DNA from: a virus
Length of the DNA: 64,000 nt
Reading direction: 5' to 3' (one strand)
Virus record (IMG/VR): IMGVR_UViG_3300028025_006304
Coordinates: 32,001 to 96,000 of that record
The notes beneath the pieces were generated by a model, which was not told the DNA's origin, did no database searches, and worked only from the letters and a program-made list of their open reading frames with translations. Of the stretch, positions 143 to 48,596 are shown piece by piece (position 1 is the stretch's first letter; each line of letters starts with the position of its first letter). The position numbers were made by a program, and so were the translations under genes.

Positions 143-1903
143 TTACAAGCTGTTAAGACCCGAAACAAAAATTTTCGCATAAAATTCTGGACGTAACATC
201 TTCTTAGCGTAACGAGTCAAGAGACCTTTTCTTGGAGTGAAGGTTTCTGGATCGTAGATAAGAGGAGTCATGATCAACGGAATGTAAGGAGCAAACACAG
301 CACCGGCTTCCAAGAACTGAGTACCACGGAATCCCATAAGGATTGTGTTTTCAGTCATGTAAGGATTTTTGTAAACTGTGTAGCGGCTATTCAATTGACC
401 AGCTTTCTGTACACCAAACGCGTATTCCATTTTGTCTGCAGAGCCATCAGAGTTTGAAGCGAATCCTGGGATTGATTCAATTACTGTAGCTACAGTTGGA
501 GAACATACTAAGAAGTTTGCACCACCACGAAGGGTTAACTGGTGAATCTTGTTAGAAAGTTTCTGCATCTTAGTACCAAGGGTTTGGAACCACTGGCCTT
601 GAGTGTTGTAGAAACCTGTTTGGCTAGTAGAAGTTGGGAAAGCAAATCCGTCTGCACTACCGTTGTAAACACCGTTGTTCAATACAGTCCAGTACTCAGT
701 ACCAGCAGCTGCGTCTTCGATCAACATGTCAAGAATTTCGAGGTCGATTTCAAGAGAAATGTACTCGCTCATGATGTTTGTTACTTCAGCTTCTGCGTCA
801 AGTGCCTGATAGGCATTAAGATCTTGGGCGAATTCTGGAGTCCAAACAGCCTTTAACTTCTTGGTCTTGGCAACAATTGCTTGTGACTGAAGTTGGATGT
901 TGATTTCTGGGATTACAATTTCAGTAGCGCTTTCAGCGTTAGGAACAGCGAATGCGTTTCCAGCTTCGAAATCACCTACGTTGTAAGGAGACATTTGAGT
1001 AGCCTTGTTGTAGAATACAGTTAATGAACCAGACAAGTTAGCAGCAGATACAGTTTGAGAAGCTGTTACGTAGAAACTGATAGTACCATTTGTGTAGTTG
1101 TAGGTAGTAAAGTTAGGCAACAATGAAGCATCGGTAAGAGCAAATCCACCTACAGAGTAAGTAGGAACGAATCCTCTAACTGCGTCGGGGTCAAATGCTG
1201 TTAATGAAGCTGTAGGAACTACAATCTCGTATACTTGACCAGCAACAATAGAAGCTGATAGATCAGAGTCATAGTTTAAGTCTGCCCATGAAGCATCAGC
1301 GAATGAAGCAGTACCGGCACCAACAGTTGGTAGAGCACCACCATCGGCTGAACCTGTCAAGAATACAGAAGCTGAGAATTGGTTAGTTGAATAGGTAAAT
1401 CTTCCAGCACCGTAAAGACCACCGTTATTATTCTCACCTAAGTTATTAGTGTTTGTAGAGAATGGGTAGTTACCATTGGCTGAACCAGTGTTACCATAGA
1501 GTGATTTTCCAGCAGTGAATGGATTCTTAGTAGTTCCGTATTGGAAATCTAAGAAGAATACAAGACCGGAAGGTAGGTTCATAGGCTGTACAGAAACGAA
1601 TTCTTTAGCAGCGATTTGACCGAATACCTTACGTACTAATGGAAGAGCAATACCAGCCCATTCGGCACCTGTGCCGACTGAGAAGTTACCGAAACCAGTA
1701 CCACCACCTACAGAAGATTGCTCTACTACTAGTTGCTTGGCTTGGTTTTCTAGGATTAAAGACATGTTGTTCTTGTCGGTCTCCGAGCGAAGTCCTTCAA
1801 GTAAACCTGTTCTATCCCATTTTGAGGCTAATTTAGCCGCGTCAGACTGCATATTCTTCCAACCGGAAGCTGCAGACTCGAGTAATTGTTGTACTTGTGA
1901 CAT
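143..1903 (-). CDS. gp23: Major capsid protein, T4 gp23-like, with Ser/Thr-rich insertion
   Basis: gp23 motifs (VSVQPMNLPSGLVF, KLKAVWTPEFAQDL, EISLEID-like, YIPL...DPETFTPRKGLLTRY); lies downstream of scaffold and protease. Confidence 0.95.
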   Translation of the reverse strand: MSQVQQLLESAASGWKNMQSDAAKLASKWDRTGLLEGLRSETDKNNMSLILENQAKQLVVEQSSVGGGTGFGNFSVGTGAEWAGIALPLVRKVFGQIAAKEFVSVQPMNLPSGLVFFLDFQYGTTKNPFTAGKSLYGNTGSANGNYPFSTNTNNLGENNNGGLYGAGRFTYSTNQFSASVFLTGSADGGALPTVGAGTASFADASWADLNYDSDLSASIVAGQVYEIVVPTASLTAFDPDAVRGFVPTYSVGGFALTDASLLPNFTTYNYTNGTISFYVTASQTVSAANLSGSLTVFYNKATQMSPYNVGDFEAGNAFAVPNAESATEIVIPEINIQLQSQAIVAKTKKLKAVWTPEFAQDLNAYQALDAEAEVTNIMSEYISLEIDLEILDMLIEDAAAGTEYWTVLNNGVYNGSADGFAFPTSTSQTGFYNTQGQWFQTLGTKMQKLSNKIHQLTLRGGANFLVCSPTVATVIESIPGFASNSDGSADKMEYAFGVQKAGQLNSRYTVYKNPYMTENTILMGFRGTQFLEAGAVFAPYIPLIMTPLIYDPETFTPRKGLLTRYAKKMLRPEFYAKIFVSGLNSL

Positions 1904-3349: not shown

Positions 3350-3958
3350 TTAGATGATTGGGCAGGTACCTTTTGCACAGAGAATTTCTGTTAAAATTCC
3401 ACTTGCTTTACTGTAATGGTTAATTGTGTTGTATTCTTTTCCTTCTTTTACTAGATGCATAAATGAACCTGGGTTGGATGGGGTTGATACAAAATCCCAA
3501 CATAGTAGTTCAAAATCGTCTTGTACTTCCATCATGCCTTCTCCCATTGGTTTAAGTGAGCCCATACCACGGGAAGAAACACCTACCATTACTCCACTGT
3601 CGATAAGTGCTTTAAGGATATTCCCGGAGACAGTCGGTAAAATTTCGATTTTACCTACAACGTGATCACCATCCCACCATATGTCGCGGATGATGTGGCA
3701 AACGTTTTTTAAATTGATTATTGACGAATCTGGGTGGTCTAATTCACCTGTGGCTCTGCTTTGTTTAACCACATCCATGTATTTGTCTATTTCACGCTGC
3801 CAAAGGTCTTTAGCGTAATATCTACCGTTACCATTTTTAACTTGAGCAGTAGCTAAGATACCTTCAACAAGGGGATTACCAGCTGGAGATTTGGTACCTT
3901 CAGTTAATTGAACAGGGTTAACCTGAAACGCTTGGGTTTCAATTAATACTTGTTTCAT
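3350..3958 (-). CDS. gp21: Prohead maturation protease, T4 gp21-like
   Basis: NGNGRYY, GELDHP, GVSSRGMGSL, WDFVSTPS motifs. Confidence 0.93.
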   Translation of the reverse strand: MKQVLIETQAFQVNPVQLTEGTKSPAGNPLVEGILATAQVKNGNGRYYAKDLWQREIDKYMDVVKQSRATGELDHPDSSIINLKNVCHIIRDIWWDGDHVVGKIEILPTVSGNILKALIDSGVMVGVSSRGMGSLKPMGEGMMEVQDDFELLCWDFVSTPSNPGSFMHLVKEGKEYNTINHYSKASGILTEILCAKGTCPII

Positions 3959-5149: not shown

Positions 5150-5160
5150 ACCTATAAATA

Positions 5161-5736
5161 TTAAGGTTTTCCCCAGAGGTATTTAGTGTCTATTGCCTTA
5201 GATTGGGCAGCTAATTTTACGGGATTAACTAGTTTATACTTAAAGTTTTTAGTATAGTAGTTATTCGTTACTCCTTTAGGACCTGCTTTGGGTCCCTTAC
5301 CTAATGATGCACCTGGAGATGCTTCGGGTAATTCTTGTTTTCCCATCTTTTTAAAGGCAAATGGAGTAGCATATTGACTACCTGCTCCAGGAGAGAATGA
5401 TCCGGCTCCAGAACCACCACCAGTACCAGTCATTTCAAACATACCTTTAATTTTTTGGTATTCTGAAGGGTATTTGGTACGCATGTGGGTTCTAAGATTA
5501 TTTCTTAAAACTCTAAATTGGTTATATATTTCTCCAAATTTAGGGTCGTTTATTACCTGGGGATCAGTAACGATTGTCCTAAGGGTTTCTAAAGCGCGGT
5601 TAATGTCTAATAAAAGGATTTCAAAATCAGGAACGTATGTTACGTCTGATTCATTTTCTTCGCCTCCGGGTGTGGGTACAAGGATAAACTTTTTACCTCT
5701 GGCTATTTCCTGAATTTTATTAGATAGAGAGTCCAT
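5161..5736 (-). CDS. Hypothetical head-region protein
   Basis: 191-aa ORF in the operon; Gly/Lys-rich C-terminal modules. Confidence 0.6.
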   Translation of the reverse strand: MDSLSNKIQEIARGKKFILVPTPGGEENESDVTYVPDFEILLLDINRALETLRTIVTDPQVINDPKFGEIYNQFRVLRNNLRTHMRTKYPSEYQKIKGMFEMTGTGGGSGAGSFSPGAGSQYATPFAFKKMGKQELPEASPGASLGKGPKAGPKGVTNNYYTKNFKYKLVNPVKLAAQSKAIDTKYLWGKP

Positions 5737-7246: not shown

Positions 7247-7269
7247 TTATTATAAATATATTAAGATAT

Positions 7270-9159
7270 TTAATCAGTCAAATTAGACTCATCTAATAAC
7301 GATTCTTTAGCTTTATCGCTTTGAAATACTAGTTTCTTGTGAAGACCCTCTAATAATGTTCTATTTTTAGATAATTCGATTTTAGTAGTCTCTAATGCTA
7401 GAGGTGAACCACCTTTAAATTGAGTTCTACCTGTACTTTCTTGGTCGTCGTTTTTCATATCTTTTCTACCTAAACGATCTCTACCCAATGCGTTATCCTG
7501 AGTGTTTATGTTAGATGCTTTTTCTTTAGGGCGACCTAATTCAGCTTTTTCATCATATCCATCAGGTAATGAATTATCAGCATACCTTTCTCTTCCATAT
7601 AAGGAAGCTAGATCGTGTGGTGTTCCGTATGAACGTCCTGTCTCAAGGGGATCATTACCTTCTTCAGCTATTTGAGTATTACGGAATGCGCGTTTTTGGT
7701 CTTGGATGATCAAATCTCGATATTCATCGTATTGGTCCTGGCTGAATTGGAATACGTTATCATAAATCCAATCGGATGGGATGATTTTAGTATCCAACAT
7801 ATCTTTAGCTAGGGCTACTTTTTCTTTTAGTAGTGCAACTTTTTCTTGCTCTGCAATAATTGAAGGAGTAGTTAACTTAAGTTCAAAGTTTGTTAATTGC
7901 TCACCGTCATACCCCTGTGAGTATAGGTGTACTAAAGCAATCTTGTATAGCTCAGATAATAAGATTCGTTGAATACGATCAATAGTGCGAGCAAAACGAA
8001 TATCTTCAGCAGCTAACGTAGCTTTACCAGTTAAGTCTTTTTCATAGCCCATGAACGCTTTAGGTACTTTAAGGGCAGCAAATAGTTTATCTCTTAGGTA
8101 AGCTACGTCTTCGATACCATTGTATTCTAGACCTTTTGTAGTGTCGATTTTAGTTGCAGTATCATTACCTCTTACTGGGATGTAGAAATCCTCAAGTAGG
8201 TTCTGCATGTTGTATTTTAAGTTATATTCACCTGTTTTCTCATCCATCAATGGAGTTTTCTTCATTGTGTTGATAGTTTTCTGCATAAATGCATCAACCT
8301 CTTGTGGTGGGATATTACCTACGTTAATGTAGAAAATACGTTTTTCTGGAGCGCGAGCAATTCTGTGGATAAGCATCGCATCTTCCATTAACACGTATTG
8401 CTTAAATAAGCGACGTCCTGGCTCAAGATATGAACGACCATAAGGAAGATAGTTTACATCTGTTAATAAGCGGAAGTGAGCTACCTCGTAGTTATCAAAT
8501 ACAATCTGATTTTCGGATGGTTTGGTATTTGGAGTAGCATAGTAACCTGAACCACCTGTATAGTAACCATCGGGAGAATAAAGGAACTGAACCTTTGCTG
8601 GGTTTTCCATATCAAAGTTTTCGCGTCTTTGAATATGGTATGCTGTGTATGGGATTACGTTATATACACCAAACTTTTCTGCGATCTCTAGCTTTAAGAA
8701 GAAATCACCATATTTACACATTTGACGAACCCAAGACCAGAGGTTGAATTCAATGTTAAGTACATCGTAGAATAGATTGTAAAGGATTTTTTGAATATCA
8801 TCGTCGCTACTTCTAATTTGAAGTACCTCTCCCATATCGTTTTTTAATGTACATTCATCCGAGATAATATCAAGGGCAGAAGCTACAATAGCGTCTGTAT
8901 CCATCACATCATAATCACTATAAAGATAAGTTCTTAGATACTGGTATTGTATATTAAATTGTGAACCTAAAAGAGATGTAGAGGCTGGGTTAGTGTAGAT
9001 TTTTCCAAATCTGTCTACCAGAGAATTTGTTTGAAATTCACCACTGGTTTGAATATGATCAGTATCAACTACTTTTAGCTGATTGCCTCCTTCATTCCTG
9101 ATGACAACATCAGTTGAAAAGAGTCTTCTTAATCTTGAAAATAAACTAGTATCAGCCAT
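7270..9159 (-). CDS. gp20: Portal protein, T4 gp20-like
   Basis: PYGRSYLE, EDAMLIHRIARAPEKRIFY, EDFYIPVRG, LFAALKVPKAF motifs. Confidence 0.93.
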   Translation of the reverse strand: MADTSLFSRLRRLFSTDVVIRNEGGNQLKVVDTDHIQTSGEFQTNSLVDRFGKIYTNPASTSLLGSQFNIQYQYLRTYLYSDYDVMDTDAIVASALDIISDECTLKNDMGEVLQIRSSDDDIQKILYNLFYDVLNIEFNLWSWVRQMCKYGDFFLKLEIAEKFGVYNVIPYTAYHIQRRENFDMENPAKVQFLYSPDGYYTGGSGYYATPNTKPSENQIVFDNYEVAHFRLLTDVNYLPYGRSYLEPGRRLFKQYVLMEDAMLIHRIARAPEKRIFYINVGNIPPQEVDAFMQKTINTMKKTPLMDEKTGEYNLKYNMQNLLEDFYIPVRGNDTATKIDTTKGLEYNGIEDVAYLRDKLFAALKVPKAFMGYEKDLTGKATLAAEDIRFARTIDRIQRILLSELYKIALVHLYSQGYDGEQLTNFELKLTTPSIIAEQEKVALLKEKVALAKDMLDTKIIPSDWIYDNVFQFSQDQYDEYRDLIIQDQKRAFRNTQIAEEGNDPLETGRSYGTPHDLASLYGRERYADNSLPDGYDEKAELGRPKEKASNINTQDNALGRDRLGRKDMKNDDQESTGRTQFKGGSPLALETTKIELSKNRTLLEGLHKKLVFQSDKAKESLLDESNLTD

Positions 9160-9182
9160 TTTTTACTTTATTATTATAAATA

Positions 9183-10748
9183 TTAAAGGAGCCAACGGAG
9201 GTCTTCCTGTTGATTACCTATTTTTTGTGTATAGGGATTTTGGACAGCATTACCTGAATATGCCCCTCCGTGTGATTTTGTCATTCCGTTTAAAGCAGCT
9301 CTAGTCATATCAAGCCCTTGCTGTTGGAATTTAAGTGAGGTATCTCTTAAAAGCATTCCGATACCAAACGACATTACTAAATCATCGTTATATCCACTTT
9401 GTGCCTCTGGTCTACCATTTTTCCAAATGAATACTTTCATTTCCTCTAGTAAACGTTTTGAGTGAATCGTTACAGAACGATCACCAACATATTCTCTAAA
9501 CTTATTTACCACAAGTGGTCTGGTTTTTAGTGACATTGTAAAACCAGGAGTTAAATTGTTACCATTTTCATATCGGTTAAAATACGACTCGGCTGTCACT
9601 AAGTCACTCTTAGGTGACTGGTAGAAGTTCTGATAACCGCGTTCTATAACAGTCTCTATTGTTGCCCAACCTATTGAAGCATTTTCTATTACTAATAAAG
9701 CATTATTGTATTCGGAGGCTAACCCTACTAGAAAATGTCCAAATTCTTTTGGCGATAATTGCCCCTTATATTCTGCAACTTGAGTGTTTGTTTCGATATC
9801 GAGTATGTGGGCAGCAGAAAAGTCTCTACCATCACCTCGAGCCACGTCGGCTACAACCATGTAATCTCGCGAATAATCAGCGGGTTGCCAAACCCATAGG
9901 TTCTTATCTGCCCCGCGTCTTTCAACCGGTTCTTTAACGGTAGTTTGGGCTATAAATTCGATCCATTCGGAATAGAATACCGTTTCTCCTGAGGTACTAA
10001 AATCACAGTCACATTCCTGTGCTGCCATTCTAGGATCACCTAATAATTCATCTTGTTTCTTTCTCCAAGCTTCATCCCTCTCTGGGTGGACATACCATGG
10101 TAACTTGATAGGTAAAAAGTCGTTCTCTGCTGCTTCCGCTTTCACCCACGTCTGGTGAAACCAGTTTCCAGTTCCATAAGGTGTTGAAAGTACTATTGCT
10201 CCACCACCCGTGGCAAGTGTTTGTTGTGCTGATGCCCATGTTTCTGCTACGTTATCGATAAAAGCAGCCTCGTCAATTACTAGCAGAGATACTGCTTCTG
10301 AACGTGCTGCGTCGGTATTAGAGGATTTTGCTTTAACTTGTGATCCGTTTGCTAGTTTTAAACTCAAACGGTTGTTTTCTATTTCTTTTACTTTAAGCCA
10401 GGAAGGTAAGTTATCGTACATGAAACGAACCTTGGTAACCATGTTTTTAGCTGTCTCCTGAGTGGTTGCAAGACACAACACGTTTTTGTCTTTATGGAAG
10501 GTCATTAACCACAAAGAATAGCTAGCAGCTAGAGTTGATATACCTAGCTGCCTGGATTTTAAAACAATAGAGTATGGGTTATCTCTCCATAAATGGAGTA
10601 CCTTTTCCTGGAATGGGAATAGGTTAAAAGTGATCCTACCGCGTTGTGGGTGTTGGATATAACAGTATTTACGCATGAAGTGGCCCGGGTCTTGGGCGCA
10701 CTTAATGTATTCCTGTTGAATTATTTGTCTTAAATCTTGATCACTCAT
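9183..10748 (-). CDS. terL: Terminase large subunit, gp17-like
   Basis: KSRQLGIST Walker A, LLVIDEAAF Walker B, STPYG, nuclease VADVARG and DDLVMS. Confidence 0.95.
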   Translation of the reverse strand: MSDQDLRQIIQQEYIKCAQDPGHFMRKYCYIQHPQRGRITFNLFPFQEKVLHLWRDNPYSIVLKSRQLGISTLAASYSLWLMTFHKDKNVLCLATTQETAKNMVTKVRFMYDNLPSWLKVKEIENNRLSLKLANGSQVKAKSSNTDAARSEAVSLLVIDEAAFIDNVAETWASAQQTLATGGGAIVLSTPYGTGNWFHQTWVKAEAAENDFLPIKLPWYVHPERDEAWRKKQDELLGDPRMAAQECDCDFSTSGETVFYSEWIEFIAQTTVKEPVERRGADKNLWVWQPADYSRDYMVVADVARGDGRDFSAAHILDIETNTQVAEYKGQLSPKEFGHFLVGLASEYNNALLVIENASIGWATIETVIERGYQNFYQSPKSDLVTAESYFNRYENGNNLTPGFTMSLKTRPLVVNKFREYVGDRSVTIHSKRLLEEMKVFIWKNGRPEAQSGYNDDLVMSFGIGMLLRDTSLKFQQQGLDMTRAALNGMTKSHGGAYSGNAVQNPYTQKIGNQQEDLRWLL

Positions 10749-12243: not shown

Positions 12244-12273
12244 CTCTAACAAATTATGATTTTCTTATAAATA

Positions 12274-13488: not shown

Positions 13489-13530
13489 AATAATGTCTTT
13501 TTATTATAAATATTGTAAAAAAACCTATTT

Positions 13531-15661: not shown

Positions 15662-15934
15662 TCAGTCTAAATGTATTTTGACTTTTAAGGTGTCTTCACC
15701 TTTCCAAGCCCTGTGCCATTTGTGACGCATCATAAATATACGCATTTCGGGTTCAAGGTCAAAAGGTAACTGATCATCAAATTGCAGTTTCCAACCTTTT
15801 CCTACCTCTAGAATCTCTATTGTACGATTCTCATCATCGCGGTGCCAGAGTAGTTCAATCGGATCTATATTATCGTCGAACTCTCTAATAATGTATTGTT
15901 CTGTAACCTCTAAATCTTTATACGGTTTTGTCAT
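15662..15934 (-). CDS. Small cupin-like hypothetical protein
   Basis: MTKPY start; LLWHRD, WKLQFD, WHRAWKG motifs. Confidence 0.55.
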   Translation of the reverse strand: MTKPYKDLEVTEQYIIREFDDNIDPIELLWHRDDENRTIEILEVGKGWKLQFDDQLPFDLEPEMRIFMMRHKWHRAWKGEDTLKVKIHLD

Positions 15935-16343
15935 CTGTAAGGGGACCTCCAACAACCCAAGCATCACAAGTCCGAGCTGCTGCACATTTAAATTTTAAGA
16001 ATCTACAATATCCTAATTTACCGGCTTTAATTACATCAAATGGATCTTCGGTACCTTCATCATTACCTATTCCTTTAGCTATACAATCTAATGTTTTAGT
16101 TGTAATATCAAATGCAGCACAGTTACCACAGAGTGATGTTTTAGCTTCTTCTACAGAATCAAGCTTCCACATGTCTACTTTAGCTTGCCAGAATTTGTTA
16201 TTTGGTTCATTAGGATTTAATGGACCATAACCATATTCATTGATTGCCTTTTGTCTGTTTTGAAGGTTAAGTTCAATGTTTTGAGTTGGAGCTGGACATT
16301 TGTTTAGTTCAGCTTCACTTAGTATGTTGACTAGTTTTATCAT
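15918..16343 (-). CDS. Cys-rich hypothetical protein with leader MIKLVNILSE
   Basis: CGNCAAFD, GYC...FKCAAARTCDAW, suggesting metal binding. Confidence 0.65.
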   Translation of the reverse strand: MIKLVNILSEAELNKCPAPTQNIELNLQNRQKAINEYGYGPLNPNEPNNKFWQAKVDMWKLDSVEEAKTSLCGNCAAFDITTKTLDCIAKGIGNDEGTEDPFDVIKAGKLGYCRFLKFKCAAARTCDAWVVGGPLTDDKTV

Positions 16344-20906: not shown

Positions 20907-20941
20907 TGCAATGAATTTGAGTATATGTTATAAATATGTGT

Positions 20942-22380: not shown

Positions 22381-22962
22381 TTAGGTTTTCTTTAAACTTT
22401 GCAAATATTTAATAGTTTCCTCTTTTGACTCAAGGAGTTTATTTTTGACTGAACCTGTCCATTTTTCTACGTCACCTGCCTCCGTAATATACGACTGGAT
22501 AGCATTGTGTTTGATTTCCTCGTTCATCCATAGCTCAAACGTTTCTATAATACCTTCAATATCTGAATTGTAGATTGTTTTTTCATATTCTTCCCAAAGT
22601 CCTTCTCTACGGATAGCTGCTTCAAAATCTATTTGGCAGTTAAAACAGCGTTTATACATGCTAAACCACTTTTTATCCAAATGTGGTTTCATTGTTTTCT
22701 TACAGGAAGGACAAAAAATGGGGAAATTAACCGCTTCACGAGCTTTATCAAGTTTTGTAACATTTTGTTTAATGCCATCCTTAATAGTCCACGTCTTATC
22801 TTCTTGATCCCATATATCTCCTTCGATATGTGGACCTTCTTGTTCTTTTGTAAAACCGACTGAAGTTGAGGATTTATCTGCATATTTTCCTTTTACTAGG
22901 TTTCTTAGACGTTGTACATCTTTTTCCTGGAATTGTTTTTTTAGAACATTTTCTTTACTCAT
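22381..22962 (-). CDS. Zinc-finger hypothetical protein
   Basis: CPSC...CFNC. Confidence 0.6.
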   Translation of the reverse strand: MSKENVLKKQFQEKDVQRLRNLVKGKYADKSSTSVGFTKEQEGPHIEGDIWDQEDKTWTIKDGIKQNVTKLDKAREAVNFPIFCPSCKKTMKPHLDKKWFSMYKRCFNCQIDFEAAIRREGLWEEYEKTIYNSDIEGIIETFELWMNEEIKHNAIQSYITEAGDVEKWTGSVKNKLLESKEETIKYLQSLKKT

Positions 22963-25493
22963 AAACCTAAGTCTTGTAACTGTTTGATTGTGTTAGCTGC
23001 TGAAGTGTGTAATATACCAATTCCACCATTAGCATTCCATGAATCGATAGTATCTTTTCTATCGTCTATTAAAATTTTATTTTGCCCAGCAAAATCGGCT
23101 TTCCTTTTAGCGGAACGAAAATATAATTTACGCATGTTAGGTAAACGTTGAACCCACTCGGTTTTACCTTGCATTGATTCGTTATTGTCTAACTTATAGC
23201 GTTCCTCAAATGGGATATCGAAATTAACAGAGGGGGCAGTTAAAACGTATGGGTTATATTCTTTGATATAGTCCCAAAGTTGTTTTCCATCGGGCATCCA
23301 ATCTAGGTTAGCCCAATATGAACGTTCGGGGATGTCTTTTTCTTTTAGACTGTTTCTAAATAAACTCCAAAATTCGTTTTTACCTTGTGAATCGGCGTGT
23401 TGAGTACTTACACCTGTTAGTTCTTTATACCCCTCATCGAAGTCCACTAACACACCATCCATATCACAAAATATCACATATTTCTTCTCTCTCATTTCCC
23501 CATCATTTTCATTAACACCCGTATTATGAAGGTACGAGATCTCTTCTAGGGGGGCAAGTTTAGCTACGAGTGCTGAGCCTTCTTTTTCAAATTTTGCTTT
23601 AGGGTATACTTTTTTGATGAATGCTTGGTAGAGATTATCGCGTTGGTTTCCCAAAACATCTTCACCTTTTTTAGGTGCTGGGTTATAAATTAACGCGTTA
23701 GTGTTTTTAAAGTCGGGGATGAGTTTGATTCCGGTTTGGATTATGTCTACTATTGTAGCCATCACTCGGAATACCTCTCCTCTGTTTATTACAGCACTAT
23801 CTGATTTACTTACACCCTTCTCTCCAGCTCCAAATCCGACCTCCATTCCATTTATATCCTCTCCTGTCTCATCATCCTCGTAATTGAGGGTTGTCAATTC
23901 AACCTCATATTCGATTCCACTGTCTGTAGTAAAACCAAACTCATAATCGCCTGGGTTAGTATTGGTAATTTCCCATTCATAGGGTTTTGAGGTGGCTTCT
24001 CCAACCTCTTGTAAACCCATAGCCAATTCACGAGCGTATTGGTTTAAACCGAATGGGTCTTTTACAGTTTTAAGTTTAATATCTGAGTTTTGAAGAAATT
24101 GTCCTTTAGGTGCTTTTTTAGGTTCAGAAGAAACCAACGAACCCTCATTTTGTAAACTATCAGTCCAGTTACGGAATGTCATAGTACCCTTTAGGTTAGC
24201 TTCAGCTTCAATATCGTTTAGATGATCGTCCTCTTGAGTATTTGTAGTTGTAATATCTCCCAATCTACCCTCCAGATTTTGGATATGGTGAATCATCTCA
24301 TGCGCGTAAGAACGCACAATATCTTTGGGATGACGCCCGTAAGTGTATAGGGTGATAGACTTATTGATCGGATCATAGTACGCGGTTTTACCCAAGAATT
24401 CTTCGGCATTAACCATATCATCACCTACTAGCTCAATGCTGGGAACAGGATCAATATTATATCCTTTCCCACGCATGTAATTAGTTAACTCGGCTATTTT
24501 TTCGAGTATGTCAATAGATGGGATAGTGTTTTCTTTTAACGGTTTATACCCTGAACCAAATGGAGCTGATTTACCATCATGGTTAGGTGCTACGTTTTCT
24601 TTTTTTAGACGTTGGGTTTTTTCTTTAGATGCTTCTTTTCTTTGTTCAGCATAATCTAAAGCTGTTTTTAAACGTCTTTTAACCTCAGGATCTTTTGCTC
24701 TTTCGTAAGCTGCTCTAACACGCTGGTGAATTAAATTAATAATTTGAGATTGGCGAGCGTGTGATTTTGATTTAAAAGATTCTTTAGATAGTGTGTCTAT
24801 AATATCTTGTTTAGTAGAGAATTTAACACCTACAGTATCGCTTGGATCTTCGTCTGTGTATAATCTACGAGATGATCCTTTTGGTTTTTTACCTGTACCT
24901 GTTTTAGGATCTCCTTCTTTTAAAACGTTTGGTTCTAAAATATTGTAAATATCTTCCTTTTCGTTAGCTGGAATCTCAGTAGGGAGATAAGTAAAGAATT
25001 TTTCTTTATCCCCTTTTTGAAGTGCTTTACGAGCGTTTGTTCCACTCATATCACCAGCTGGGGTTTTAATTACTCGAACCTCTATGTTAGGGTATTTTTC
25101 TTCTACCCCCTTGGTGCGAGAGATAATATCTTGTAAATCATCTTCTCTACCTTCACGGTAACCCAAAACAAAATATACTTTCTCGTCTGGGTGGTTTTTA
25201 GCATAACGTAAGATATCTCCGATTGGGGAAGCTGATGGTTCTATTTGAACTTTAGATGGGAGCAATTCCTTGTAAATATCCCATATTTGCATAGATTGTT
25301 CTTGTTCGATTCCATCTCTAACACCCCCACCAACATAGATTAAAAATTTGTCTATGTCTTTAAAATCTTTTAAAGCTGTTTTAACTAAGTCAAAGTGACC
25401 TTTGGTGGGTGGTTTAAAACCACCCCCATAGATTGCTGTAACGGATTTTCCGTCTATTAGCTCGTTAACTAAAAACTTAGTTAATTCGTCCAT
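22959..25493 (-). CDS. Five-domain protein: HIGH-type nucleotidyltransferase, basic domain, HExxH metallopeptidase-like, unknown domain, HAD 5'-nucleotidase-like
   Basis: GGGFKPPTKGH and SGTNAR (res 23-33, 150-155); AHEMIHHIQ (397-405); IFCDMDGVLVDF and ILIDD...W..NGGIGILH (674 onward). Confidence 0.8.
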   Translation of the reverse strand: MDELTKFLVNELIDGKSVTAIYGGGFKPPTKGHFDLVKTALKDFKDIDKFLIYVGGGVRDGIEQEQSMQIWDIYKELLPSKVQIEPSASPIGDILRYAKNHPDEKVYFVLGYREGREDDLQDIISRTKGVEEKYPNIEVRVIKTPAGDMSGTNARKALQKGDKEKFFTYLPTEIPANEKEDIYNILEPNVLKEGDPKTGTGKKPKGSSRRLYTDEDPSDTVGVKFSTKQDIIDTLSKESFKSKSHARQSQIINLIHQRVRAAYERAKDPEVKRRLKTALDYAEQRKEASKEKTQRLKKENVAPNHDGKSAPFGSGYKPLKENTIPSIDILEKIAELTNYMRGKGYNIDPVPSIELVGDDMVNAEEFLGKTAYYDPINKSITLYTYGRHPKDIVRSYAHEMIHHIQNLEGRLGDITTTNTQEDDHLNDIEAEANLKGTMTFRNWTDSLQNEGSLVSSEPKKAPKGQFLQNSDIKLKTVKDPFGLNQYARELAMGLQEVGEATSKPYEWEITNTNPGDYEFGFTTDSGIEYEVELTTLNYEDDETGEDINGMEVGFGAGEKGVSKSDSAVINRGEVFRVMATIVDIIQTGIKLIPDFKNTNALIYNPAPKKGEDVLGNQRDNLYQAFIKKVYPKAKFEKEGSALVAKLAPLEEISYLHNTGVNENDGEMREKKYVIFCDMDGVLVDFDEGYKELTGVSTQHADSQGKNEFWSLFRNSLKEKDIPERSYWANLDWMPDGKQLWDYIKEYNPYVLTAPSVNFDIPFEERYKLDNNESMQGKTEWVQRLPNMRKLYFRSAKRKADFAGQNKILIDDRKDTIDSWNANGGIGILHTSAANTIKQLQDLGL

Positions 25494-25856
25494 TTACTGA
25501 AGCTTCATGATAAGCTCTTTTGCCTTAGCTTTCTTATCAGCGATTGCTGTTTTAGCTGCTCTATACTCTTCCATTTCGCGCTTAAGAGCTTCTTTCTGCA
25601 TTTCGTACTCTTTCATAGCTGTTTTAGCATGTTTGCGAGCCGCTGATTTATTAGTACCTGCATAAGCAGCTGCAATCTCGTTCATGTCAATAGTATCGTA
25701 GATTGAAGCAGGACGGATCATATCATCCATAGACATACCTCTCATTGGTTTCATTACAAGAATGATTTCGCCAATCTCGTTATATGGCTCTTTCATTTCC
25801 ATTGTTTCTGCTTCAAGGGCTTCCTTAATAAGGGATTTTAATACTGATTTTTTCAT
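25494..25856 (-). CDS. Hypothetical protein with leader MKKSVLKSLIKEALE
   Basis: 120-aa ORF, coiled C-terminus. Confidence 0.65.
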   Translation of the reverse strand: MKKSVLKSLIKEALEAETMEMKEPYNEIGEIILVMKPMRGMSMDDMIRPASIYDTIDMNEIAAAYAGTNKSAARKHAKTAMKEYEMQKEALKREMEEYRAAKTAIADKKAKAKELIMKLQ

Positions 25857-26656
25857 GAGTTAAGGAATTGTTTTATTTTAGACTGAGCCTCTGGGATAGA
25901 GACTGTTTGTTGAATAATATTTTGTACGTTTTCTTTGTTGCGTAATGATAGAATTTCCTGTTCTAGTTTTTCTTTATCAGCTCTGGATTTAGCTGCTTCT
26001 TTTTCTGTTTTTGGTTTGGTATCTTGTGGTTTGAAAGGATCAATATAACGTTTAATTATATCTTCTAAACTTCTTTTACCAAACGGATCCTTGTCTTTTG
26101 TAGTAGCTACAAAGTTTTGACCAAATAAGTTAAGGTACGGGATAAAGTTTTTTGTTACGTTTGCCCATGTTTGCATTACAATACCTGGCATCAAACTTCT
26201 ATCCTCACCAGCTGAACGCTCGAATCTATCTTCGTTTTTCTTAAGTGATTTTTCAAGTGAAGAGTATACAAATACCATCATTACATCATATCCAGCTTCC
26301 TCTAATGTTTCCTTTAATTTAACGGTTTCATTATATGATGCTGCTGTACCGTCAATGACAATATTCCCACGCTTTTCAATTTCTTGTTTTAACTCAGCCT
26401 TATAAGGTTCTTTAGCTGATGCCATTGCTATAGCTGCTCCACTTCTACCAGCAGCATCTGCTCTTTTTAGATCAAGTGAGATGCCAGCGTTGCGGAGATT
26501 TTTAATAAAATAATCATCAATATTTAGTACCGTTAAACCAAGATCACGGATTATCTCATCTGTAACAGATGATTTTCCAGCACCGGGAGCCCCAGCAAGT
26601 ATAATAGCTTTAGGAGAACCTTGTACCTCCTTTAGTAATCTTATCAGTGAAATCAT
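25853..26656 (-). CDS. P-loop kinase (zeta-toxin/AAA_33-like)
   Basis: ILAGAPGAGKSS, IVIDGT, MVFVYSSLEKSLKKNEDR; leader MISLIRLLKE. Confidence 0.75.
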   Translation of the reverse strand: MISLIRLLKEVQGSPKAIILAGAPGAGKSSVTDEIIRDLGLTVLNIDDYFIKNLRNAGISLDLKRADAAGRSGAAIAMASAKEPYKAELKQEIEKRGNIVIDGTAASYNETVKLKETLEEAGYDVMMVFVYSSLEKSLKKNEDRFERSAGEDRSLMPGIVMQTWANVTKNFIPYLNLFGQNFVATTKDKDPFGKRSLEDIIKRYIDPFKPQDTKPKTEKEAAKSRADKEKLEQEILSLRNKENVQNIIQQTVSIPEAQSKIKQFLNS

Positions 26657-26679
26657 ATACGCGCGTTTACGTATAAATA

Positions 26680-28389: not shown

Positions 28390-28421
28390 AGATAATAAAG
28401 AAAGCTTGGATAACCAAGCTT
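28390..28421 (-). promoter_or_regulatory. Overlapping terminator hairpin and host-type promoter for primase
   Basis: Sense AAGCTTGGTTATCCAAGCTT-TCTT-TATTATCTTG; TTG-N17-TAT-TATCTTG, 5 nt before the ATG. Confidence 0.55.
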
Positions 28422-28863
28422 ACTCTATAAAGTCTTTTCTGAAGAATTTCCCGAGCACATTATCGTTGTACCATTTTTCCGGTTCCTCCAATACCCCCAT
28501 TGTAAATAAATATTTGCACTCGTAATAGGTAAGTAGCTTTTTACTGGGAACCAACTTTAAGATGACTCTCTCGAACTCGTCTTGTCTACCTTGCTTGAGT
28601 AACTCTAAGATTGGTTTAGCTGAACCATAGTATGTTTTCCAATCGCTTTCCTTTTGGATTACCTCGGTGGTTGATTTTCTACCCCTACCAGATTGCTCAG
28701 CGAGTTGTTTTTTGGTGAGTTTTTTCTTCACGTTGTGGTATAGTACTTTCTTACCAATGTAAGAAAATCCACTTGGAACGTGAGTAACCTGATAAATAAA
28801 ACCATAGGTATCTGCTGGGAAATCTTCTAAGCTAGATACCTCTTTATTATTATATAACCACAT
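28420..28863 (-). CDS. GIY-YIG family nuclease (Seg-like)
   Basis: YGFIYQVT...YIGKK, WKTYYGS, YNDNVLGKF. Confidence 0.7.
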   Translation of the reverse strand: MWLYNNKEVSSLEDFPADTYGFIYQVTHVPSGFSYIGKKVLYHNVKKKLTKKQLAEQSGRGRKSTTEVIQKESDWKTYYGSAKPILELLKQGRQDEFERVILKLVPSKKLLTYYECKYLFTMGVLEEPEKWYNDNVLGKFFRKDFIE

Positions 28864-31908: not shown

Positions 31909-32562
31909 TTATTGTTTTGTAATAGTTACTGGGATTGTAATACGAGCACCTGAATCTCTACCTACTACTGTTAAAGTGGCTTGTAAGATTGAATTTGAAC
32001 CAAATAATGTATTTACAGTAGTTGCGGTTAAGTTAATTGTGGTACCAATTACTGTTTTAGATACGTTAGTACCAACTGTTGTAGTTGAATTAAGAGCTAT
32101 TGCATCTGGGGTGTTGATACCTACACCATTGAATTGGCTAAGTGTTCTAACATCTGAGATAGTGGCTGTGTAGCCTGAGGTCTCATAAGTTGAATTACCA
32201 CCTAGGTAATTTAGGGTTTGAGGAGTGATTGCTAATGAAGCCCCTTGTTTAAGAGTGATTGCAGCATATCCTAGATCAAGTACTGGCATTTTAGAGGTTC
32301 CACGAGGTAGTGTAGTTAACACATACTTCATTTCTTGAGTTACAAGAGGGAATGCTTCTAGAAGAGGCATGTTTTCAATTGCTTGACCATAATAAGCTGA
32401 ACCTGAAGGGTTAGTTGGATTATAAAGTGTATAATCGATTTCATCATCAGATAAAGCAAATTGAGTAATACGGAATGAACCGTCGTTTTTAGCAAGTAAC
32501 TCTCTACCTACATCTGTTAAGATAGCATCTACTGTTACTACTGCGTTATTTAAATATCCCAT
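31909..32562 (-). CDS. Virion structural protein
   Basis: VDAILTDVGRELLA...FALSDDEIDY; Thr-rich; late motif at 32587-32594. Confidence 0.6.
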   Translation of the reverse strand: MGYLNNAVVTVDAILTDVGRELLAKNDGSFRITQFALSDDEIDYTLYNPTNPSGSAYYGQAIENMPLLEAFPLVTQEMKYVLTTLPRGTSKMPVLDLGYAAITLKQGASLAITPQTLNYLGGNSTYETSGYTATISDVRTLSQFNGVGINTPDAIALNSTTTVGTNVSKTVIGTTINLTATTVNTLFGSNSILQATLTVVGRDSGARITIPVTITKQ

Positions 32563-32626
32563 TGTTGTTTAAAGTCTAGGTTTTGTTATAAATATACAAA
32601 AAGAAAAAATTAGTGGCACGTTTAAA

Positions 32627-46184: not shown

Positions 46185-46202
46185 CTGTTATAAATATTGA
46201 AT

Positions 46203-48582: not shown

Positions 48583-48596
48583 GGTTATAAATATAT

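Follow-up and report, generated by a model that had tools for sequence, protein, structure and literature searches.

The closest described counterparts of the protein treated here are the polyvalent proteins of Iyer, Burroughs, Anand, de Souza, and Aravind (2017), i.e., phage polypeptides that unite many unrelated catalytic domains with extreme mosaicism around a zincin hub, that are predicted to act as early effectors delivered with the DNA, and that their MPTase domains are predicted to process (PMC5512222). A second point of reference is phage T4, whose internal proteins bear capsid targeting sequences of 10-19 residues that are removed by the prohead protease gp21, with a cleavage motif of L/I-X-E, and T4-like phages may be able to package a variety of proteins by means of such leaders, as a review of T4 suggests (PMC9026906). 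The gene studied here shares features with both. It is an open reading frame (ORF) of 844 codons plus stop, with an ATG start, at 22959..25493 on the minus strand of a stretch of 64,000 nucleotides (hereafter the window) that spans positions 32,001 to 96,000 of the IMG/VR virus record IMGVR_UViG_3300028025_006304 (G000; 118,602 bases), and we refer to its 95.6 kDa product as the polyprotein. The ORF is real at the position first predicted for it, and the strand, which had not been given, is added here.

The original prediction had read the ORF as a concatemer of unrelated enzymes that is cut by a gp21-like protease into separate effectors; that proteins of this kind have already been described as polyvalent proteins (PMC5512222) is our addition to it. 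Disparate domains around a zincin hub, together with architectures that are mosaic and carry cassettes of the conflict type, bring the polyprotein under the working definition of that class, and we are highly confident that it is a multi-effector protein of the polyvalent type. ART-PolyVal, Zeta-toxin kinase, and GNAT domains occur in its relatives as they do in polyvalent proteins (PMC5512222). In contrast, its HIGH nucleotidyltransferase and NT5C nucleotidase, DUF6934, and the superoxide dismutase (SOD) cassette of its relatives are not mentioned in the text of PMC5512222; it has no MuF, portal, or ArdC-N fusion; its zincin gave no Pfam MPTase-PolyVal match at the E values searched; and it carries a prohead-protease-type motif at every joint and has relatives with leaders on split-off modules, neither of which is described in that work. 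The best reading of the sequences is that the joints are candidate prohead-protease sites, which would be new relative to known polyvalent proteins. We judge it fairly probable that the polyprotein is cut at its joints, and put forward more tentatively that the prohead protease does so inside the capsid. The basis of this proposal is observed, namely the domains and their independence, cassette shuffling located at the joints, a conserved motif, leaders on split modules, and the protease gene.

Independent modules and the joints between them

The five domain calls made originally stand, those for modules A and E on profile and motif evidence and those for modules B, C, and D on a structure model; all coordinates within the polyprotein are on the minus strand. 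Module A (24915..25460, residues 12-193, ending in VLKE193) is a HIGH-signature nucleotidyltransferase with TKGH at 30-33 and SGTNAR at 150-155, and counterparts of the (T/H)xGH and ISxTxxR motifs of the PF01467 superfamily are present in it. Its match to Pfam CTP_transf_like (0.03) is under the cut-off, three relatives reach 1.1e-6, and there is a further weak match to phrog_3041, a cytidyltransferase family. When a profile of the family was searched against the PDB, module A retrieved PPAT and NMNAT (phosphopantetheine and NMN adenylyltransferases) at E 0.002-0.01; the single-sequence PDB search gave only weak PPAT matches for module A (E 0.06 and above) and only spurious ones for module E. 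Module E (22962..23486, residues 670-844) is a HAD 5'(3')-deoxyribonucleotidase (NT5C) with DMDG at 677-680, LTAPS at 751-755, and IDDR at 809-812, and the DxDx(T/V) nucleophile, the Thr/Ser motif II, and the distal DD are all present. It matches phrog_2643 at 6.7e-27 and, by profile, PDB entry 4mum (mitochondrial deoxyribonucleotidase) at E 1.5e-4, while its score against Pfam NT5C (0.035) is under the cut-off.

The remaining modules were identified from an alignment-based AlphaFold model of residues 180-690, outside which modules A and E largely lie; it has a mean predicted local distance difference test score (pLDDT) of 73 and a predicted template modelling score (pTM) of 0.37. A single-sequence AlphaFold model of the whole protein was unusable (pLDDT 38). 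Three folded units are predicted in the alignment-based model: a basic helical module B (24597..24914, residues 194-299, pI 10.0), which starts GDPKTGTGKKPKGSSRRLYTDEDP; a very confident module C (24144..24530, residues 322-450, pLDDT >90), the zincin metallopeptidase, with GRHP at 386-389, HEMIH at 398-402, and a distal Glu in IEAEA at 428-432; and an alpha/beta module D (23541..23996, residues 500-651), DUF6934-like with a GNAT-like fold and a conserved NRGEVFRV at 570-577. The matches of module D are to DUF6934 clusters of viruses and, at lower strength, to acetyltransferases of the GNAT type.

The pLDDT drops below 50 at residues 190-200, 301-322, 454-477, 492-500, and 648-671, which are the proposed joints, and local alignments with relatives break at query residues 193/204/210, 298/319/325, 449/497, and 647/666. 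Homology breakpoints and low-confidence segments thus agree on the domain boundaries that had been proposed, and independent domains with disordered linkers, one of the checks then suggested, are what AlphaFold predicts for residues 180-690. Between B and C lies linker L1 (24531..24596, residues 300-321; NVAPNHDGKSAPFGSGYKPLKE), a recurrent peptide of pLDDT <50 that ends in LKE321 and whose conserved form is GK[AS]AP[FY]GSGY..L.E. Linker L2 (23997..24143, residues 451-499), between C and D, contains the recurrent peptide KDPFGLNQYARELAMGLQE followed by VGE, and linker L3 (23487..23540, residues 652-669; ISYLHNTGVNENDGEMRE) precedes E, with pLDDT <50 over 648-671. Two linker peptides, GK[AS]AP[FY]GSGY..L.E and KDPFGLNxYAxELAxGLEE, recur at many joints of the family. 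Both are conserved far beyond the needs of a plain tether, and their possible roles are docking, internal targeting as a helix, and release as a peptide.

The polyprotein belongs to a large family (>4609 matches in one search; 6129 clusters at 50% identity in another), and its architectures were counted on 270 retrieved proteins. Order and content vary among these relatives, which bears out a second of the suggested checks: we found more than 60 architectures, in which A is usually first and E usually last, B and D are optional and mobile (A-D-B-C-E, A-C-x-B-x-E), and module C is present in 265 of the 270. Unrelated cassettes sit between the modules. Pfam recognizes among them Fe/Mn SOD, DUF6934, DUF5661, ART-PolyVal, Zeta toxin, GNAT, and a Pol-beta-type nucleotidyltransferase (NTP_transf_2), and a RegB-like RNase cassette (REGB_T4) gave a weak match only (E 7e-4); no MuF or portal fusion was seen in the Pfam scan of the relatives. 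The exchange of cassettes occurs at the proposed joints.

The x-x-E strings listed originally are all found at the quoted residues (LVNE 8-11, VLKE 190-193, LKKE 296-299, PLKE 318-321, LQNE 447-450, LQE 494-496, VGE 497-499, LEE 649-651, VNE 660-662, and MRE 667-669), and the motif lies at boundaries more often than chance would place it there. Nine of the 16 occurrences of [LIVM]xE in the polyprotein fall inside the leader or a linker, which together make up 14% of the residues (binomial P ~1e-4), and Glu as such is not enriched in these segments (13/72). Across family representatives at 50% identity or less, 72% of 551 module boundaries have a [LIVM]xE whose end lies no more than 2 residues away, vs 9% of random positions, a comparison that overstates independence and is no probability, since the boundary instances are related by descent. 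The joints read alike regardless of the module that flanks them. With a slash marking the joint, module A ends ..[LIV]xKE; module B follows ..LNE/ADPKKGTGKKPKGS; module C starts after L[NKT]E/N and ends WTDSLNE/; module D starts [LIV]xE-VGE-[AG]; and the SOD cassettes of relatives are flanked by NLNE/ and /LKEELITE/. At the joint where module C starts, P1 is Glu in 50/50 distinct sequences, P2 is N, K, T, R, S, E, or P, and P3 is Leu, Ile, or Val, written with eight codons. Conservation of the linker Glu was another of the suggested checks, and the Glu is indeed kept while P2 and the codons vary. That the residue class persists while its codons change points to selection on the protein, with the pattern aliphatic-any-Glu.

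This codon variation also bears on a reading in which the joint peptides are mainly recombination linkers for cassette swaps and have no protein role. The placement of cassette exchange exactly at the joints, and the recurrence of two linker peptides at many positions, would suit it, and the His-box motifs of T-even tail fibre genes are a precedent. However, a three-codon motif is too short for homologous recombination, and one whose P3 comprises three residues spelled by eight codons, with P2 free, is not what such a linker leads one to expect. We rejected recombination as the main explanation because the codons vary at the joints, and regard it as highly improbable in that role; it can coexist with cleavage.

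Leaders on the polyprotein and on split-off modules

The polyprotein begins with a leader (25461..25493, residues 1-11), MDELTKFLVNE, that forms an amphipathic helix before the first beta-strand of module A, with hydrophobic residues at positions 4, 7, and 8 and Val at P3. The N-terminus of T4 IPIII is MKTYQEFIAE, in which the hydrophobic positions 4, 7, and 8 are similarly spaced. An N-terminal leader of 16-25 residues is present in 77% of family representatives.

Whether relatives encode the domains as separate leader-bearing genes had been named as a check, and such genes were seen for the nucleotidase and for module D. The nucleotidase has a gene of its own, placed immediately downstream, in Flavobacterium phage immuto and at 12 distinct metagenomic loci, and all 12 of the 12 distinct stand-alone nucleotidases have an N-terminal extension of 13-20 residues that ends in the motif (e.g., MRLIEMLNE, MKLIQLLRE, MIKLVDLLKE, MSNLFELYKLIKE, and MPNLLDLYE). 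At these split loci the upstream gene ends ...LNLPKF, corresponding to ...LSLP[VIL]FE ahead of module E in fused forms. A stand-alone D protein (P0276) begins MKLFEILNE/IGDGTAKPYKY, and a leaderless homologue (P0277) begins TAKSYSY, which shows the LNE-VGE prefix to lie outside the D fold. On separate modules the leaders are thus 9-20 residues long and amphipathic, with the same terminal motif. Stand-alone zincins are uninformative on leaders: the only two that appear whole are P0395 (MKPLTE/NSTYS) and P0375 (leaderless), and most short zincin matches (P0289, P0291, P0295, P0349, and P0288) have internal-Met starts and odd tails. These short database proteins look like gene calls on frameshifted metagenome assemblies rather than real split genes.

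Leaders of this type are also found on unrelated proteins of the window, among them a Zeta-toxin-like kinase, the product of ORF 15918-16343 (MIKLVNILSE), and that of a 120-aa ORF at 25494-25856. Near-identical leaders thus recur on the Zeta kinase and further ORFs of the window as well as on NT5C and D where these stand alone. A leader pattern applied to the 71 ORFs of the window matched 10 vs 2.7 expected, a rough figure only, as the pattern misses the polyprotein's own leader.

Candidate processing enzymes

The original prediction named a gp21-family protease as the processing enzyme, and one is present. The prohead protease gene (3350..3958, minus strand) matches Pfam Peptidase_S77 at 2.1e-28, above the cut-off, and phrog_207 at 1.7e-56, and an S77 protease is encoded in 5/5 large related genomes tested. 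Its product starts MKQVLIE, which resembles the N-terminal LIE site of T4 gp21. The prohead protease of phiKZ prefers S, A, or G at P3 and differs in this from what the joints of the polyprotein present.

As in T4 with IPI-III and Alt, there is a genome-encoded gp21-family protease and a short amphipathic leader that ends in aliphatic-x-Glu and is portable between unrelated proteins (PMC9026906). In the proposed mechanism the polyprotein would work like the T4 internal proteins and the large T4 enzyme Alt, which is cut at both ends and ejected (PMC9026906). In contrast, T4 cargo consists of single-domain units with one propeptide (two in Alt), whereas the polyprotein family concatenates up to five or more units, for which internal cuts are proposed. 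In phiKZ, 201phi2-1, and SPN3US, the prohead proteases cut many inner-body/ejection proteins after the Glu of a three-residue motif, some of them at several sites, and P4 and P1' preferences are given for SPN3US; the cuts mostly remove long N-terminal propeptides, and the substrates are not enzyme chains with shuffled cassettes (PMC10052503).

The second candidate is the zincin within the polyprotein itself. Module C, whose predicted secondary structure runs H-E-E-E-H-H, aligns over ~100 residues with each of its best structural matches, which are Wss1 (Z 8.1), Wss1 of S. pombe (Z 6.9), SPRTN (Z 7.1), and the metalloprotease domain of ArdC (Z 6.4), and Foldseek additionally returns IrrE and minigluzincins. 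It shares the HExxH and the distal Glu with the Wss1/SPRTN/ArdC zincins but is only 10-15% identical to them, and Z values in this range, obtained with a predicted model, fix only the common minimal zincin core and no specific family. A sequence search of the PDB with module C found nothing, and no Pfam MPTase-PolyVal match was obtained for the query (E up to 1) or for 48 relatives (E up to 0.001); the closest signal among the latter was one weak DUF6782 match (8.6e-4). No DNA-binding partner domain was identified for module C.

A self-processing polyvalent protein, in which the built-in zincin cuts the joints in cis or in trans, be it in the cytoplasm, within the head, or once it has been injected, and the prohead protease is uninvolved, can draw on several of these facts. 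Among the modules, C varies least in its occurrence, relatives almost always keep its HExxH and distal Glu, and L-x-E borders it on both sides in most family members. Its fold is like that of proteases that are known to cleave themselves or to figure in polyvalent proteins (PMC5512222). Joints also persist in members of the family that have no leader. Nevertheless, the joint pattern, i.e., an aliphatic residue at P3, a free P2, and Glu at P1, fits the documented specificity of gp21, and the T4-like leaders gained by stand-alone modules would not be needed. We know of no such aliphatic-x-Glu specificity for Wss1/SprT-type zincins, and on balance consider self-processing quite unlikely.

Cutting by the prohead protease would proceed as follows. 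The polyprotein would be transcribed together with the Zeta-type kinase gene from a promoter-like motif common to virion operons, and its N-terminal amphipathic leader would bring the precursor into the prohead core in the manner of a T4 capsid targeting sequence. The Peptidase_S77 enzyme would then cut after the Glu of aliphatic-x-Glu in the linkers (E11, E193, E321, ~E450, E496/E499, E651, and E662/E669), which would release five 12-21 kDa products along with small peptides from the linkers. The products would exit the head with the DNA and act ahead of phage gene expression. In this scheme we infer that the precursor is targeted, cleaved, and retained in the head, that the products are ejected, and what these products act on.

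The promoter-like octamer, TATTTATA in the coding-strand reading, stands at 26672..26679 on the minus strand, 16 nt upstream of the kinase start. A TATTTAT(A/T) motif ahead of the kinase gene is conserved in relatives (exact octamer in 40/74 loci) and is absent before the primase and exonuclease genes of the related loci. In the window, TATTTATA also stands ahead of the portal gene and of an operon with a baseplate wedge gene, and its presence at both the kinase-polyprotein operon and virion-gene operons suggests co-expression with virion genes. Its window sites (26672-26679, 9175-9182, 7251-7258, 5153-5160, 12266-12273, 13505-13512, 20929-20936, 32587-32594, 46189-46196, and 48586-48593) lie 3-25 nt upstream of start codons in minus-strand coding, and the octamer also precedes two homing-endonuclease-like genes and several leader-bearing ORFs. 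It is likely a phage promoter class, distinct from the promoters of the early cassette at 53-62 kb.

The genome setting and the leaders are also where a different account has to be weighed, i.e., that the polyprotein stays uncut in the cytoplasm and works there as an enzyme of several domains, perhaps on pools of nucleotides or NAD, that its linkers are plain tethers, that its L-x-E is a helix-end or linker feature inherited with each module, and that its N-terminal helix is part of the nucleotidyltransferase fold. NT5C and NMNAT/PPAT-like proteins are usual cytoplasmic auxiliary enzymes of phages, the gene adjoins those of a primase and an exonuclease, and some polyvalent proteins (N4 vRNAP and ArdC) stay uncut (PMC5512222). 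Two further facts fit it, namely the retention of the leader helix where module A is internal and the leaderless NT5C of jumbo phages that have an S77 protease, both of which are set out below. However, the account leaves unexplained why stretches with predicted disorder carry an invariant Glu beside a free P2, why one motif borders five folds that are unrelated as well as foreign cassettes like SOD, and why a motif-ending leader is gained upon gene fission, and the set of modules (protease, GNAT-like, and basic protein, with ART, Zeta kinase, and SOD in relatives) forms no obvious single pathway. We regard an uncleaved enzyme as somewhat unlikely.

Several observations weigh against cutting by the prohead protease in the capsid, in addition to the shared descent of the boundary instances. 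Twenty-one percent of representatives are leaderless, starting MSK/IVAIYGGGF at the first beta-strand, and yet keep the joints. In relatives with an internal module A, the leader helix persists, following an LNE, so the helix may belong to module A rather than being a removable signal. In LKKE299 and LQNE450 the Leu occupies P4 instead of P3, and both fall outside a strict L/I-x-E. The nearest genes upstream of the kinase-polyprotein operon are the primase and exonuclease genes, and the late timing of the TATTTATA operons is itself something that we infer. A conserved zincin that looks catalytically intact offers an alternative route of processing, and a search for proteomic data on relatives found none. 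Five S77-bearing jumbo phages have a leaderless NT5C, which makes the leader a lineage trait of the polyprotein's own lineage, plus HTVC008M and Melnitz, rather than a general one. Leaders on NT5C homologues were found only in S77 phages, these three being the cases, and the NT5C of the single non-S77 phage in the comparison, phiCbK, is leaderless; the distribution of leaders relative to S77 is compatible with cleavage, if weakly.

The idea of a concatemer cut by the prohead protease thus comes through in part. The domains, the joints, the motif, the leaders, and the S77 gene all support it, whereas the members without a leader speak against it, and the zincin is a second candidate enzyme that the original prediction had not weighed.

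Genome setting, family distribution, and implications

The genes of the window, which comes from a T4-like phage, run in one direction. Besides the prohead protease, a major capsid protein (143-1903, minus strand), a portal (7270-9159, minus strand), a large terminase (9183-10748), baseplate wedge and tail fibre genes (32-45 kb), and a primase, an exonuclease, and a segE-type homing endonuclease (26.7-28.9 kb) were identified in it. The capsid protein reads LVVE61/QSS ~45 residues before VSVQPMN, which we take to be at the position of the T4 gp23 maturation site. A 191-aa ORF (5161-5736, minus strand) lies in the head module between the portal and protease genes, and 67 residues of its product align at 36% identity (E 6e-10) with a cassette at residues 316-382 of P0225, a relative of 1547 aa.

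The operon that contains the polyprotein begins with the gene of a Zeta-toxin-like P-loop kinase (25853..26656, minus strand; Pfam 1e-15), whose leader is MISLIRLLKE. The 120-aa ORF (25494..25856, minus strand), with the leader MKKSVLKSLIKEALEAE, lies between the kinase and the polyprotein. Gene order is fixed over ~80 loci as segE, primase, exonuclease, Zeta kinase, (120-aa ORF), polyprotein, and a homologue of 22381-22962, and the kinase module is fused inside the polyprotein of the relatives P0225 (residues 1131-1281) and P0258 (at the N-terminus). The SegE-type GIY-YIG homing endonuclease (28420-28863, minus strand; Pfam 5e-26) sits between a virion-protein-like gene and the primase gene, and the PHROGs label of this endonuclease family, 'NAD synthetase', is an apparent misnomer.

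A megablast search of 10 kb against cultured phages gave no match, and by tblastn the single cultured lineage with a homologue is Flavobacterium phage immuto. The immuto homologue (L001; NC_055915.1, 5173-7896) is annotated as NMN adenylyltransferase/NadR and has an extra N-terminal domain of ~288 residues (MSGVAGGNRILRG...), as do P0251 and P0264. In immuto all G is replaced by a 7-deazaguanine derivative (PMC10516641); the immuto literature is about this DNA modification and holds nothing on the polyprotein.

The lineage concerned, one of T4-like aquatic phages, is very large and almost uncultured. We suggest, as a tentative extension, that throughout this lineage the prohead protease may double as a processor of polyproteins, that effector cassettes bracketed by L-x-E may be exchanged, fused, and split at these sites, and that each capsid may load and inject a strain-specific cocktail of small enzymes that derive from a single precursor. 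If so, this would be a DNA-phage counterpart of the polyproteins of RNA viruses, would provide a general sequence rule for head-packaged cargo, and would widen the capsid-targeting principle of T4 from single small proteins to polyproteins built from cassettes. The polyvalent-protein idea, which is computational, would be tied to a concrete and testable processing enzyme. It would further indicate new activities that act early (nucleotidyltransferase, nucleotidase, GNAT-like, and zincin), possibly directed at host defence or nucleotide signals. To our knowledge, almost no injected effectors of such metagenomic phages are known today; if the joints are real prohead-protease sites, a leader, or L-x-E in a disordered joint, together with an S77 protease, would flag injected effectors in thousands of them from sequence alone.

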